From contig NC_006576.1 of the NCBI RefSeq assembly GCF_000010065.1, forward strand, positions 1,440,001 to 1,472,000: a stretch of DNA of 32,000 nt, given 5' to 3'. The notes beneath the pieces are model-generated. The model saw nothing but the letters and a program-made list of their open reading frames with translations, searched no databases and was not told the DNA's origin. Position 1 is the stretch's first letter; each line of letters begins with the position of its first letter. The position numbers were made by a program, and so were the translations under genes. The DNA comes from Synechococcus elongatus PCC 6301. Its GTDB lineage: Bacteria > Cyanobacteriota > Cyanobacteriia > Synechococcales > Synechococcaceae. Shown here piece by piece: positions 2-4,141 of this stretch.

Positions 2-727
2 ATGGCCTCCACAGATCAGCATTATGAACAACTGCTCGCGCCGATTTACGAATGGATGGCTGGTGGCGCTGAGGCAGCACTCACTGCTGGTGCTGCTGAC
101 TTAGAGGGACTTTTGCACTCGCCGGGGCTCTGTTTGGATTTGGGTGCGGGCTTTGGCATGCATGCGATTCCACTCGCACAAGCAGGCTTTGAGGTGATCG
201 CGATCGATTCTTCGGCGCAGCTCTTGGCGCGGTTACAGGAGTTAGCGGGTTCTCTGCCGATTCAGTCGGTTTGTGCTGATTTGCTGGACTTTCCTGAGCA
301 TCTGCCGGCAGGCCGCAAGCCAAGCCTGATCGTCTGCATGGGCGACACCTTAACTCACCTCGATAGTCTTGAGGCAGTCGATCGCTTAGCGAGTCTGGCC
401 GCTGAACATCTCGCACCGGGTGGGCGTTTTCTGGCGACATTCCGCGATTATTCGCAGCCACTTCAGGGCGATCGCCGCTTTATTCCGGTGCGATCGGATC
501 AGTCTCGAATCCTCACCTGCTTTCTGGAAGAACAAGGCGATCGCATCTGTGTGCATGACATCCTCCATGAACGGCAGGGCGATCAATGGACGATGCAAGT
601 CAATCACTATCTGCAGCTGCGGCTAGCACCCGAAACAGTTCGCCAGATTTTTGTAGATAAGGGCTTCATGACGCAGATAGAGGCAGCACCGAGAGGTATG
701 CTGCGCCTAATTAGCGATCGCCATTGA
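2..727 (+). CDS. class I SAM-dependent methyltransferase
   Basis: 241-aa ORF from ATG 2-4; it could extend off the window edge. Rossmann motif I-like LDLGAGFGMHAIPLAQAGFEVIAIDSS, then CMGDTLTHL. Host-like GC with several HIP1 copies, the last at 714-721. Confidence 0.75.
   Translation: MASTDQHYEQLLAPIYEWMAGGAEAALTAGAADLEGLLHSPGLCLDLGAGFGMHAIPLAQAGFEVIAIDSSAQLLARLQELAGSLPIQSVCADLLDFPEHLPAGRKPSLIVCMGDTLTHLDSLEAVDRLASLAAEHLAPGGRFLATFRDYSQPLQGDRRFIPVRSDQSRILTCFLEEQGDRICVHDILHERQGDQWTMQVNHYLQLRLAPETVRQIFVDKGFMTQIEAAPRGMLRLISDRH
714..721. repeat. HIP1 octamer GCGATCGC (representative copy; last one before the island)
   Basis: Read directly. By eye, copies recur every few hundred bp in the flanks (e.g. 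4384-4391, 4791-4798). I found none between 722 and 4383. Confidence 0.9.
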
Positions 728-1006
728 AGTGATGACAGTATAATCGTATATTTATTAAATTAAGTAAGGAGTTTTCAGCGCTTCATTTACATGGATTTCA
801 CTACACCCTCCAAGAAATTGGAAGACATCTTCTGAAAGATTGCACCCAATCAATATCTCTTGCCTAAATGTTAACAAATAGTTTGGTGGTCTAATGACCT
901 TCATCAGCAACAGCTAACTTAATGTAAGAATTTTGTAATCACGCAATACATTAAGATAATTCTGAGACAAGCTTCATCACAGCATTTTGCCCTTATACTG
1001 GAGAAG

Positions 1007-1012
1007 TATAAT
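1007..1012 (+). promoter_or_regulatory. candidate -10 box (TATAAT) upstream of the ATPase gene
   Basis: Perfect TATAAT about 80 nt upstream of ATG 1091. There is no good -35: TTGCCC sits at a 14-nt spacing, and ATTTTG at 17 nt. In AT-rich DNA this could occur by chance. Confidence 0.25.
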
Positions 1013-1077
1013 ATGTAGATTCTTGATTTACGGCAATAGACTGCCAACTCATGATCAAGAAGTTAAACTAAGGCTTT

Positions 1078-1082
1078 AGGAG
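1078..1082 (+). promoter_or_regulatory. Shine-Dalgarno (AGGAG) for the ATPase gene
   Basis: AGGAG lies 8 nt upstream of ATG 1091. Confidence 0.55.
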
Positions 1083-1090
1083 TCGAGAAA

Positions 1091-2464
1091 ATGAAAATTA
1101 AGCGAATTTCTGTATATGGTTTATTTGGAGTTTTTGATCACACAATTTCCTTAAACACTAATCAAAGAATTACTATTATTCATGGTCCTAATGGCTTTGG
1201 AAAAACAGCAGTATTAAGACTATTAAACAGCTTTTTTAATTCTCGATATTCCGAGTTAAGATCAATTTCATTTAATAAATTCAAGGTAGAGTTAAATGAT
1301 GATACAGTTATTGAAGTTGCAAGAGAAATAAAAGACTTTCACGAGTCAGGAAGAGTTGATATAACTTTTTATTTATACAAACCTAACATCGAGAGAAAAT
1401 CCTTCTCTTTAGGTCAGGTTAAATATTCTCCCGATATAGGTTTTCCTATTGGTATCCTAGATGAAGTAGTGCCAGGTCTGGAAAGAATAGATACCAGAAA
1501 GTGGATGTATCTTCCCACCGATGAGGTTTTATCTTTAGAAGAAGTTGTTGAGCGTTTTGGAGACTCATTACCTGACTCTTTATCTGCAAATTTAAGGGGA
1601 TCTTATTCAAAAGAAGAACCTGTGTGGTTGAAGGACATAAAAAATGCTATTCACATTCGCCTCATTGAATCGCAGCGACTACTTAATCTCGTTCCTAGTC
1701 GTTCTTCCAGAACATATCGTGGAACACCTTTAATGCTATCTACTGTCTCCGCTTATTCGGATGAACTTGCAAAGCTCATGCAAGATAAATTCAAGGAATA
1801 TGGCACAACATCGCAATCTCTTGACAGAACATTTCCATTGAGAGTGGTAAAGCAACAGCCATCTTCGGACGTATCAGATGAGCAGCTTCGCAACCAGTTG
1901 GATGAGCTTGAGTCAACTCGTTCTCGTCTCATAGAGGTAGGACTACTAGATAAAGAAGAAGATTCAGAATTTCAAATTCAACCTCAAGATATTGATGAGA
2001 GCACCAAAAATGCGTTATCAGTTTATGTCGAAGATGTAGAAAAGAAATTGAATGTATTTTCTGAAATCGCAAGAAAGATCGATCTTTTGAGAAGAATTAT
2101 TAACAATAAATTTGCTTATTCCTATAAGGAAATAAATTTTAGCAAGGAAAAAGGATTTGTTTTTTCAACACGCTATAAATCCTTTACTGATTCAAATAAA
2201 CTGTCACCGACAGATTTATCATCTGGCGAACAGCATGAATTAGTTCTTTTGTACGAGTTATTGTTTAAGGTCAAACCTAACTCACTGGTTCTCATCGATG
2301 AACCTGAACTTTCTCTACATGTAGGCTGGCAAATTCAATTCCTAAAGGATTTACAAGAGATCATAGAGCTCGCAGACCTAGATATCCTAATGGCTACTCA
2401 CTCACCAGATCTTATTCAAGATAGATGGGATTTGACAGTTGAGCTGAAAGGGCCAGAAAAGTGA
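1091..2464 (+). CDS. ABC/AAA-type ATPase (AAA_15/AAA_21-like; AriA-like component of a PARIS/split-OLD type module)
   Basis: 457 aa. Walker A G32PNGFGKT39 (nt 1184-1207), Q-loop-like IESQRL, and a long helical insertion between the N- and C-terminal ATPase halves. ABC signature L376SSGE380, Walker B L399VLIDE404, H-loop ATH437SP. The stop codon overlaps the next start (GTGA at 2461-2464). Very low GC. Confidence 0.85.
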   Translation: MKIKRISVYGLFGVFDHTISLNTNQRITIIHGPNGFGKTAVLRLLNSFFNSRYSELRSISFNKFKVELNDDTVIEVAREIKDFHESGRVDITFYLYKPNIERKSFSLGQVKYSPDIGFPIGILDEVVPGLERIDTRKWMYLPTDEVLSLEEVVERFGDSLPDSLSANLRGSYSKEEPVWLKDIKNAIHIRLIESQRLLNLVPSRSSRTYRGTPLMLSTVSAYSDELAKLMQDKFKEYGTTSQSLDRTFPLRVVKQQPSSDVSDEQLRNQLDELESTRSRLIEVGLLDKEEDSEFQIQPQDIDESTKNALSVYVEDVEKKLNVFSEIARKIDLLRRIINNKFAYSYKEINFSKEKGFVFSTRYKSFTDSNKLSPTDLSSGEQHELVLLYELLFKVKPNSLVLIDEPELSLHVGWQIQFLKDLQEIIELADLDILMATHSPDLIQDRWDLTVELKGPEK

Positions 2465-3333
2465 AAGATTTACTTTCAAACGACCGTCATGCAAACCAGA
2501 TTCGGTTGCGAAGAAGCACATTTCAAGGAACATTTTTACTTGTAGAGGGGTCCTCAGATAAAATTTTTTATGAAAATTTAATTGATCAATTAGAGTGTGA
2601 AGTAGTAAATATTTCAGGCAAGCCATCTAGTAAATTACTAGTTATTTCTGTGCTAAAAATATTGGAGAAAAGACCAAGATTCAATGGGATTCTAGCAATT
2701 GTTGATGCAGATTTTGATCGACTTGCAAATCTGCAACCTCACAGTTCTAATCTCCTCTACACGGATACTCATGATCTTGAATCCATGATCATCAATTCCC
2801 CAGCTTTTTACAAGGTAATTGCCGAGTATGGATCTAAAAATAAAATTCATCAATTTAATCGAGATATAAGGGTAGCAATACTTGAAAGTGGTACTTCAAT
2901 TGGCTATTTGCTTTGGATTTCTCAATGTAATGAGTTGAATCTAACTTTTAAAGGCATTAGGTTTAGTAGGTTTATTGACGAAAACAGTTTGCAAATAGAT
3001 GAAATCGAACTAATTCGTGAGATTAAGAATAAATCACAGGCCTTCTCATTAGACGATGAGGATCTGCGACTTCAACTGAATGATAAAAAAGATAATGGTT
3101 ATGATCCCTGGCAGGTTTGCTGTGGTCATCATTTAGTCGAAATTCTGTCACTTGGCTTACGAAGAACTCTTGGTTCTAATCAGGCGTCTGATATTGAGCC
3201 TGATAAGCTTGAGCGTTATCTAAGACTTGCCTACGAGGAAAAGTATTTCCTTAATACAGATTTATACGCAAGTATTCGCAACTGGGAAGACAACAACATG
3301 CCATTTAAAGTGCTAAAAAATGATAGATCTTAA
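2461..3333 (+). CDS. DUF4435/OLD-type Toprim domain protein (AriB-like putative nuclease effector)
   Basis: 290 aa. GTG start with a 4-nt overlap on the ATPase stop. N-terminal FLLVE29GSSDKIFY supplies the Toprim Glu (codon 2545-2547). IVD82AD84FD86 supplies the DxD metal site (from nt 2704). There is no other plausible start upstream of E29 apart from TTG at 2506. Confidence 0.8.
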   Translation: MKDLLSNDRHANQIRLRRSTFQGTFLLVEGSSDKIFYENLIDQLECEVVNISGKPSSKLLVISVLKILEKRPRFNGILAIVDADFDRLANLQPHSSNLLYTDTHDLESMIINSPAFYKVIAEYGSKNKIHQFNRDIRVAILESGTSIGYLLWISQCNELNLTFKGIRFSRFIDENSLQIDEIELIREIKNKSQAFSLDDEDLRLQLNDKKDNGYDPWQVCCGHHLVEILSLGLRRTLGSNQASDIEPDKLERYLRLAYEEKYFLNTDLYASIRNWEDNNMPFKVLKNDRS

Positions 3334-3787
3334 TCAATGGTAACTTTGCGGTTAATACTAATTAATTTGAAATATTTATAAATACCTAAGTGGCTGACAA
3401 TTAGCGGATAAAGGTATTTTTATCTCAACAATTCTATTATTTTAACTGAATAGTTAGAGTGTCGCAAGACAATCGTCTATAAAAATTATCTAGCCTGCTA
3501 AAAAACTAAGCTCTGAAGGCACTTTGTATACAAAATGCCGATTGCACTGATCTGACGACTTGTAACTTTTGCCAGATATTAGTGCCATGATTAACTATTA
3601 GATGTTGAATATGATTAATGGCAGCTAGGGTTGCTTCTCAAAATTCTAGGATTAAAGCAAATAACTGTCCTGAGGCCTAGAAAGCGGTCAGTTTTTAGTC
3701 TACCAGTCGTAAAGATGTTTATAGTTGTAGGGCTCTTTTTAGAGAAGAGAAACTGTTTTTTATAAAGCATTAGTGATGGTAACTGAA

Positions 3788-4141
3788 TTAAAGCAATTTT
3801 GAGCCCAGCAGAACGGACTTGTCAAGGATGCAGAGCGCTACTTCTCTGTTCTCGCTCTGGAATCCCGTGACAAGGCAATCAGACATAAGCAGACCGATTT
3901 GCTTACATGGAAAGTTGACCACTGCTACGACAAGCCCACCGATCAGTTCTTCCGGCTTGTAGAGTGCGGTGATCTGCGCACTTGATTTCTTGACACCAAT
4001 CTCTTCACCGAAGTCGATATGCAGGATGTAGGCTGGCCTCCGCGCACCCACAAACTCAGTTGCATCAACAATCTTGCCGACACGAAGCTCAACCTTCAGA
4101 AACTTGTCGAAGGTAATAGTTTCTATGGGATGCACCTCCAA
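3788..4141 (-). CDS. csaA: CsaA/Trbp111-type tRNA-binding OB-fold protein
   Basis: 117 aa with strong family motifs: LRVGKIV...HIDFGEEIGVKKSSAQITALYKPEELIGGLVVAVVNFPCKQIG. TTG start at 4141 (GTG two codons in is an alternative). No HIP1. Intermediate GC (29/61 in a hand sample). Confidence 0.85.
   Translation of the reverse strand: MEVHPIETITFDKFLKVELRVGKIVDATEFVGARRPAYILHIDFGEEIGVKKSSAQITALYKPEELIGGLVVAVVNFPCKQIGLLMSDCLVTGFQSENREVALCILDKSVLLGSKLL

Follow-up and report, generated by a model that had tools for sequence, protein, structure and literature searches.

In a 32,000-nucleotide (nt) stretch of Synechococcus elongatus PCC 6301 (NC_006576.1, positions 1,440,001–1,472,000; this whole stretch is the window, and coordinates are counted from its first letter), two adjacent and co-oriented open reading frames (ORF1 and ORF2) encode an ATPase, whose gene comes first, and a DUF4435 protein, whose gene comes second and overlaps the first by 4 nt. 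We consider this pair very probably an ordinary member of the known and widespread PARIS family (AriA plus AriB), acquired horizontally as an abortive-infection module. The genes and the signals that join them are as follows.

1091–2464, + strand: ORF1, ATG start, 457 amino acids (aa), AriA-like ABC/SMC-type ATPase
2461–3333, + strand: ORF2, GTG start, 290 aa, predicted AriB-like DUF4435/Toprim nuclease
2461–2464, + strand: GTGA start/stop overlap formed by the end of ORF1 and the start of ORF2, through which translation of the two is probably coupled, judging by the junction itself
1078–1082, + strand: AGGAG, a Shine-Dalgarno-like sequence 8 nt 5′ of the ORF1 ATG, as read from the letters

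Both reading frames and their GTGA overlap had been proposed in an earlier note on this DNA and were borne out here; the same GTGA junction was found in the corresponding loci of Nodosilinea, Trichormus and Nostoc (L007, L008 and L010, respectively). Chance reading frames are an inadequate account of 457 plus 290 codons in DNA of 35% G+C content (GC) with hundreds of homologues. The two proteins are 100% identical to Synechococcus elongatus entries annotated as “AAA family ATPase” and “DUF4435 domain-containing protein”, and in strain PCC 7942 the pair occupies positions 177550–179792 of CP000100.1. Among the S. elongatus assemblies compared, the low-GC island that carries the pair is identical except for one mismatch, which lies outside both genes (window 600–990, against CP000100.1).

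ORF1 was assigned by Pfam to AAA_15 (E-value 9e-21, 75.3 bits) and AAA_21 (7.5e-16, 59.5 bits). Compared with the PADLOC defence models, it matched 127 families, of which AriA model PDLC04164 was the best (7.5e-25), and a further AriA model (PDLC02979) was covered end to end. Among sequences of solved structures in the PDB, E. coli AriA (8ux9_B) ranked first (1.8e-12), and a profile built from the ORF1 family placed AriA (3e-23) 11 orders of magnitude ahead of the Septu ATPase PtuA (5e-12), with OLD at 2e-9. The catalytic motifs of the ATPase are located as follows, with invariance referring to alignment A4.

1184–1207, + strand: Walker A GPNGFGKT, ORF1 residues 32–39; K38 corresponds to AriA K39; invariant
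2216–2230, + strand: ABC signature LSSGE, residues 376–380; aligned with the AriA LSSGE
2285–2302, + strand: Walker B LVLIDE, residues 399–404; E404 corresponds to AriA E393; D403 and E404 invariant
2393–2407, + strand: H-loop ATHSP, residues 435–439; corresponds to AriA CTHSP; T436, H437, S438 and P439 invariant

K38 and E404 pair with K39 and E393 of AriA, the residues mutated in published AriA work, and ORF1 is, as read from its sequence, an AriA-type ABC ATPase with every catalytic motif intact. These four motifs are the ones that the earlier note had picked out; its description of the intervening segment as a single ~330-aa insertion did not stand, as the remainder of the ATPase's N-terminal lobe falls within the ~336 aa between Walker A and the signature.

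ORF2 was assigned by Pfam to DUF4435 (3.9e-16, 60.0 bits, residues 25–230). Its sole PADLOC match below an E-value of 1e-3 was AriB (8.8e-25, 86 bits), followed by PDC-M38B (0.0014) and GajA (0.0089), and the 86 bits that it scored on the AriB model compare with 39 and 49 bits for the AriB proteins of Pseudoalteromonas and Planktothrix, which are of the type found in E. coli B185. The fold was predicted with AlphaFold2 (AF2). A first model, built on a shallow alignment (51 sequences, 63–75% identity), had a predicted local distance difference test score (pLDDT) of 65 and already ranked AriB first; a deeper alignment with relatives at 40–60% identity gave a model with pLDDT 94.9 and a predicted template modelling score (pTM) of 0.90. 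Searched against the PDB with Foldseek, this model returned only two matches at E≤0.001, both of them AriB: 8ux9_A (E 1e-5, template modelling score (TM) 0.59) and 8v46_D (TM 0.51), each full length with probability 1.0. The remaining matches were partial Toprim domains of gyrase and topoisomerase IV, with E-values above 0.06, and among the viral structures of BFVD no significant fold match was obtained, a viral RloB-like protein standing at E 0.14. On the strength of the model, ORF2 is an AriB-type two-domain protein (Toprim plus helical) carrying the full metal-binding acidic set. The earlier note had expected AAA_15/AAA_21 on ORF1, DUF4435 on ORF2, a PARIS call by DefenseFinder or PADLOC and a Toprim core in the ORF2 fold. 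The Pfam matches were found, AriA and AriB were the best PADLOC models, and the Toprim core was seen within a full-length AriB match.

The residues that make up this acidic set, and the most conserved stretch of the C-terminal domain, lie at the following positions.

2545–2559, + strand: Toprim E29-G-S-S-D33 (from LLVEG, residues 26–30, onward); corresponds to AriB E26 and D30
2704–2712, + strand: D82-A-D84 (in DADFD, residues 82–86); corresponds to AriB D88-R-E90; D82 and D84 invariant
2779–2781, + strand: E107 of THDLE; corresponds to AriB E122 (HSLEN)
3118–3132, + strand: C220-C221-G222-H223-H224 in the C-terminal helical domain; G222 invariant

All five acidic residues are invariant or nearly so across 77–97 homologues. 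Position 29 is E throughout alignments A1 and A3 and in 49 of 51 sequences of A2, and D33 is invariant in A2 and A3 and present in 76 of 77 in A1. The LLVEG glutamate and the D82-A-D84-F-D86 run named in the earlier note are both present; D86, unlike D82 and D84, varies in the family among D, W, S and E. In the C-terminal domain, a C-C-G-H-[D/H] motif is almost invariant in the family, and CGHH of ORF2 can be set beside RGHT of E. coli AriB, a pairing made by eye only. H224 was considered as a possible defect of ORF2 and rejected, since 21 of 51 sequences in the closest clade share this variant. Furthermore, K58, which is basic, broadly conserved and placed where the second helix begins, may be the counterpart of the AriB K60/K64 “tweezers”, although this is offered only as a suggestion.

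Taken as a pair, ORF1 and ORF2 can be compared with the original published definition of PARIS (Rousset et al. 2022), which requires AAA_15 at 32 bits or more or AAA_21 at 27 bits or more, plus DUF4435 at 27 bits or more, in two genes (PMC9122126); fusions of the ATPase and the DUF4435 protein also count as PARIS. The values obtained were 75.3 and 59.5 bits for AAA_15 and AAA_21 on ORF1 and 60.0 bits for DUF4435 on ORF2, so standard defence-finding software would be expected to call the pair; PARIS is the first of the readings that the earlier note had put forward. Among prokaryotic genomes, 5.2% reportedly encode PARIS (PMC9122126). DefenseFinder was applied to this genome in a 2025 preprint, whose supplementary files, to the extent that they were available, carry no list of S. 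elongatus systems.

The best-described relative is the PARIS system of E. coli B185, which is borne on a P4 satellite and for which structures are available (8UX9, 8V45–8V49). Like that system, the S. elongatus pair has its ATPase gene first and its DUF4435 gene second, at similar protein lengths (457 + 290 aa here against 464 + 316 aa); it shares the Walker lysine (K38/K39), the Walker B glutamate (E404/E393), the signature and the H-loop in the ATPase, and the Toprim acidic set in the nuclease, for which AriB is the sole full-length fold match in the PDB. Unlike B185, it resides in a cyanobacterial host, in a chromosomal island that has neither a satellite nor a prophage around it, and the resemblance of ORF1 to a B185-type AriA amounts to ~31% identity over the last 154 aa only, with 21% over the first 80 aa. 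These comparisons place the pair, by sequence, outside the B185 type and in a separate branch of PARIS.

Several observations weigh against membership in PARIS, or against carrying details of B185 over to this pair. On ORF1, PtuA models score nearly as well as AriA models in PADLOC (2.8e-23 against 7.5e-25), so the ATPase alone cannot separate the families. The middle of ORF1 (put at 280 residues, or roughly at residues 90–300) cannot be aligned with AriA by sequence, and this is the region that carries the trigger-binding surfaces in B185; accordingly, the coiled-coil helical bundle of AriA, its homohexamer and its 6:3 complex, which sequesters AriB at the head-head interface, cannot be transferred to ORF1 by sequence. 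For ORF2, no pairwise similarity to AriB was detectable, and E. coli AriB was matched neither by phmmer nor by a 77-sequence family profile searched against PDB sequences, the matches returned being de novo TIM barrels, which are spurious, and weak Toprim proteins. Because this direct sequence link is absent, the connection between ORF2 and AriB was made by fold, and here too the TM of 0.5–0.6 at a root-mean-square deviation of 6 Å denotes the same fold with clear divergence or a different orientation of the domains. The hhalign alignment that maps AriB E26, D30, D88, E90 and E122 onto ORF2 E29, D33, D82, D84 and E107 has a probability of only 10% (E 0.003) and spans ~100 residues, the Toprim core. 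Where AriB has R28 and R31, which touch AriA in the complex, ORF2 has S31 and K34, and these columns vary across the family. Finally, we found no literature that names or tests this locus, or that tests PARIS in any cyanobacterium, which agrees with the earlier note's remark that no experimental characterisation in cyanobacteria was known.

Some of these points can be set in context. The motifs VEG..D, D.[DE]F and H.LE agree between ORF2 and AriB despite the weak alignment. Phage and Vibrio DUF4435 relatives of ORF2 likewise show no sequence match to the solved AriB. The pore and trigger-binding residues of AriA are poorly conserved in published alignments (PMC11464382), and published trees indicate that AriA and AriB co-evolve within clades (PMC11464382), so strict conservation of the contact residues R28 and R31 is not to be expected.

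The near-equality of PtuA and AriA models on ORF1, together with the lack of direct AriB sequence similarity in ORF2, would also be compatible with another family that joins an ATPase to a Toprim or other nuclease (AbiL, MADS, RloA/RloB, Septu, Gabija or class 1 OLD), with different sensing or a DNA target. All of these families fall in one ATPase clade (PMC11464382): the ATPases of Septu PtuA, Gabija GajA and class 1 OLD belong to the same AAA_15/AAA_21 ABC clade as ORF1, and GajA and OLD use Toprim chemistry, as is predicted for ORF2. Taken individually, however, each candidate departs from what was found. For Gabija, the ATPase and Toprim are on separate proteins here, the GajA models match only partially and weakly, and no UvrD-like GajB gene lies nearby. 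For Septu, ORF1 does match PtuA models, but ORF2 is a DUF4435/Toprim protein with no HNH match at E≤1. For class 1 OLD, two proteins are present here, and the OLD-like_TOPRIM profile (PF20469) reached 15.7 bits, below its 23.2-bit cut-off. For the mad3/mad4 genes of MADS, ORF2 gave no mad4 match at E≤1; a B185-type AriB does match the PADLOC mad4 model weakly. RloA/RloB-like and AbiL-like pairs had been listed as alternatives in the earlier note and found no support: ORF2 has no Pfam match to RloB (PF13707) at E≤1, with only the viral RloB-like structure mentioned above, and AriB remained its sole PADLOC match below 1e-3, with the presence of an AbiL model in that library unconfirmed. Only AriB fits the whole ORF2 fold. 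We regard assignment to any of these other families as very unlikely.

Under the PARIS reading, a mechanism can be proposed by homology to B185 (PMC11464382, PMC10802264, PMC12409363). Oligomers of ORF1 would keep ORF2 monomeric and inactive; a phage protein would bind ORF1 in an ATP-dependent manner; ORF2 would then be released, dimerise and nick one host tRNA, or a few, in the anticodon stem-loop; and translation would stop, aborting the infection. In this branch, both the trigger and the choice of tRNA are probably not those of B185. A larger departure, in which the branch shared by cyanobacteria and P2-like phages would be functionally distinct in kind from B185 rather than in specificity only, is suggested by the unalignable middle of the ATPase and by an ORF2 sequence that, apart from the Toprim motifs, shows no detectable similarity to AriB of B185. 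In that event, the released nuclease might attack another RNA or DNA instead of tRNA, and what the sensor recognises might not be an acidic anti-restriction protein. We hold such a difference in kind to be unlikely.

The module lies in a region that differs sharply from its surroundings and comprises the following parts.

728–3787, no strand: low-GC island, 3,060 base pairs (bp), between the stop codons of the host methyltransferase (2–724) and tRNA_bind genes
1058–3315, + strand: core mobile unit, the blastn alignment in common with Nodosilinea
3334–3787, no strand: AT-rich 3′ spacer of the island; no gene and no known RNA, only short reading frames

GC is 0.33–0.36 in all four segments of the island against 0.56 in the rest of the window, and GC at third codon positions (GC3) is 0.28 against 0.55–0.64. 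Moreover, the HIP1 octamer GCGATCGC has no site in the island against 85 in the other ~29 kb (about one per 340 bp), which suggests an insertion too recent for amelioration. In blastn comparison, the island matches Nodosilinea sp. LEGE 07088 (L007 6596–8855) at 83% identity in one alignment of 2262 nt that starts 33 nt 5′ of ORF1 and ends 18 nt short of the ORF2 stop, and the flanking spacers have no counterpart in it. The Nodosilinea pair also sits in a low-GC island (0.378 against 0.58), pair GC is below that of the flanks in every cyanobacterial genome checked, and the neighbours and insertion site differ in each of the four genomes compared. The limits of the Nodosilinea match and the unrelated neighbourhoods elsewhere indicate that the moving unit is the two genes only. 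Acquisition of the pair by horizontal transfer, which the earlier note had supposed, is hence strongly supported by base composition, the missing HIP1 sites and the Nodosilinea match.

The spacers of the island contained no integrase or mobility relic, no Rfam family and no homology to the other loci compared. An empty insertion site was sought by scanning for the neighbouring ABC transporter, which recovered 80 distant loci from cyanobacteria, the methyltransferase and tRNA_bind genes being absent beside all of them, and exact-protein look-ups of the flanking genes gave back the known context only; because no empty site was found, the borders of the island rest on base composition and on the Nodosilinea homology.

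Relatives of the pair were found both within and outside the cyanobacteria. The cyanobacterial clade includes Nodosilinea sp. LEGE 07088, Trichormus variabilis ATCC 29413, many Nostoc, Scytonema and Planktothrix, with identities of 66–88% for ORF1 homologues and 63–75% for ORF2 homologues, and its members bear no annotation beyond “AAA family ATPase” or “DUF4435 domain-containing protein”. A pattern scan of IMG/VR yielded no phage member of this clade. The nearest non-cyanobacterial relatives found are two pairs in P2-like elements, a phage of Yersinia and a prophage of E. coli ST131, both full-length homologues with the gene order of S. elongatus and with genes directly abutting: gp05/gp04 of Yersinia phage vB_YenM_31.17 (30% identity for ORF1, E 9e-51; 28% for ORF2, E 9e-29) and WP_001531543/WP_001531545 of E. 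coli ST131 (33% and 26%). Whereas these copies are phage-borne in enterobacteria, that of S. elongatus has no surrounding phage genes. In the Yersinia phage the pair is flanked by the repressor and integrase genes, and in E. coli ST131 by the tail-fibre assembly and tail-sheath genes, two intervals that are reportedly defence hotspots of P2. As far as we found, neither phage pair has been characterised in the literature. A link from the Yersinia pair to the validated PARIS-1 of E. coli O42 was not reached, blastn returning partial matches only, in 17 E. coli genomes. Pairs on Vibrio plasmids bridge the B185 type and that of S. elongatus, their ATPase being 36% identical to a B185 AriA fragment and their DUF4435 protein 25% identical to ORF2.

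Database names of some ORF1 homologues, such as “excinuclease” and “ATP-binding protein involved in virulence”, along with the weak Pfam resemblance of ORF1 to SMC/Rad50/RecF N-terminal domains, might instead point to a housekeeping role in DNA repair or recombination. Such a role is barely credible given the foreign composition of the island, the different neighbourhood in each of the four genomes and the occurrence of homologues in P2-like phages and on plasmids; nor did NCBIfam give a match to any repair family above its cut-off.

Both genes are under purifying selection, with ratios of nonsynonymous to synonymous substitution rates (dN/dS) of 0.09–0.27 across three comparisons, values from which we infer that both are maintained by selection. 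These ratios bear on a further explanation, namely that S. elongatus keeps either a relic of PARIS or a selfish addiction cassette of the toxin-antitoxin kind, which would provide no phage defence, for example because it is unexpressed or meets no cognate trigger among the phages of this host. AriA and AriB are formally an antitoxin and a toxin (PMC10802264), a distant E. coli homologue defended only when expressed from an inducible promoter (PMC9122126), and in S. elongatus no mobility genes are left in the island and no convincing promoter or terminator was found for the pair (14 promoter-like sites against 11.7 expected). A relic, however, would fit poorly with two intact reading frames, conserved catalytic residues, dN/dS well below 1 in all three comparisons and an island that is unchanged within the genes in every S. 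elongatus assembly compared; against simple addiction, deletion of either gene in E. coli was non-toxic (PMC9122126). We therefore judge this explanation to be quite unlikely and retain the reading of the pair as a PARIS abortive-infection module.

To a specialist, nothing here is surprising, as the family occurs in ~5% of genomes and the standard rule describes the pair; the interest is mainly practical. S. elongatus PCC 7942 is a main cyanobacterial genetic model, and an intact PARIS module in it offers a handle on abortive infection in a phototroph. As far as we found, the branch to which the module belongs has no prior tests in the literature, and setting it beside B185 could reveal the variation in trigger recognition and tRNA choice among PARIS clades. 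More speculatively, PARIS might react to anti-restriction proteins on conjugative or engineered DNA, which would matter for strain engineering and for cyanophage use. Should the branch prove distinct in kind, S. elongatus would offer a tractable phototroph in which to study a new mode of PARIS.

The gene that borders the island at its 3′ side encodes a tRNA_bind protein (PF01588, CsaA/YgjH-like; 3788–4141, − strand). It was considered as a part of the system and rejected: its GC3 is host-like (0.57), and it does not adjoin the pair in Nodosilinea, Nostoc or Trichormus. Its position beside a module whose relatives cleave tRNA looks like a coincidence.

A number of further observations were made at the related loci. 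Between S. elongatus and Nodosilinea, ORF2 has diverged much faster than ORF1 (72% against 88% aa identity; dN/dS 0.27 against 0.09), and the dN/dS values of the two are similar in more distant comparisons. In Nodosilinea (L007 6631–9481), a 109-aa Phage_int_SAM_4 integrase fragment lies just 3′ of the module, and in Trichormus variabilis only, a 75-aa DUF433 gene overlaps the start of the ATPase gene (L008 6441–6668). Plasmid p1 of Planktothrix agardhii carries a B185-type PARIS pair (L006 3098–5490) whose AriA is 51% identical to a B185 AriA fragment, so cyanobacteria host at least two PARIS branches.

Within the island itself, a 17-nt imperfect inverted repeat (82% complementary; 919–935 and 3639–3655) brackets both genes from outside the region in common with Nodosilinea, and may be due to chance in AT-rich DNA. 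The AT-rich spacer 3′ of ORF2 also contains a near-perfect palindrome of 22 bp, GGCACTTTGTATACAAAATGCC at 3518–3539, which could be an operator or a hairpin.

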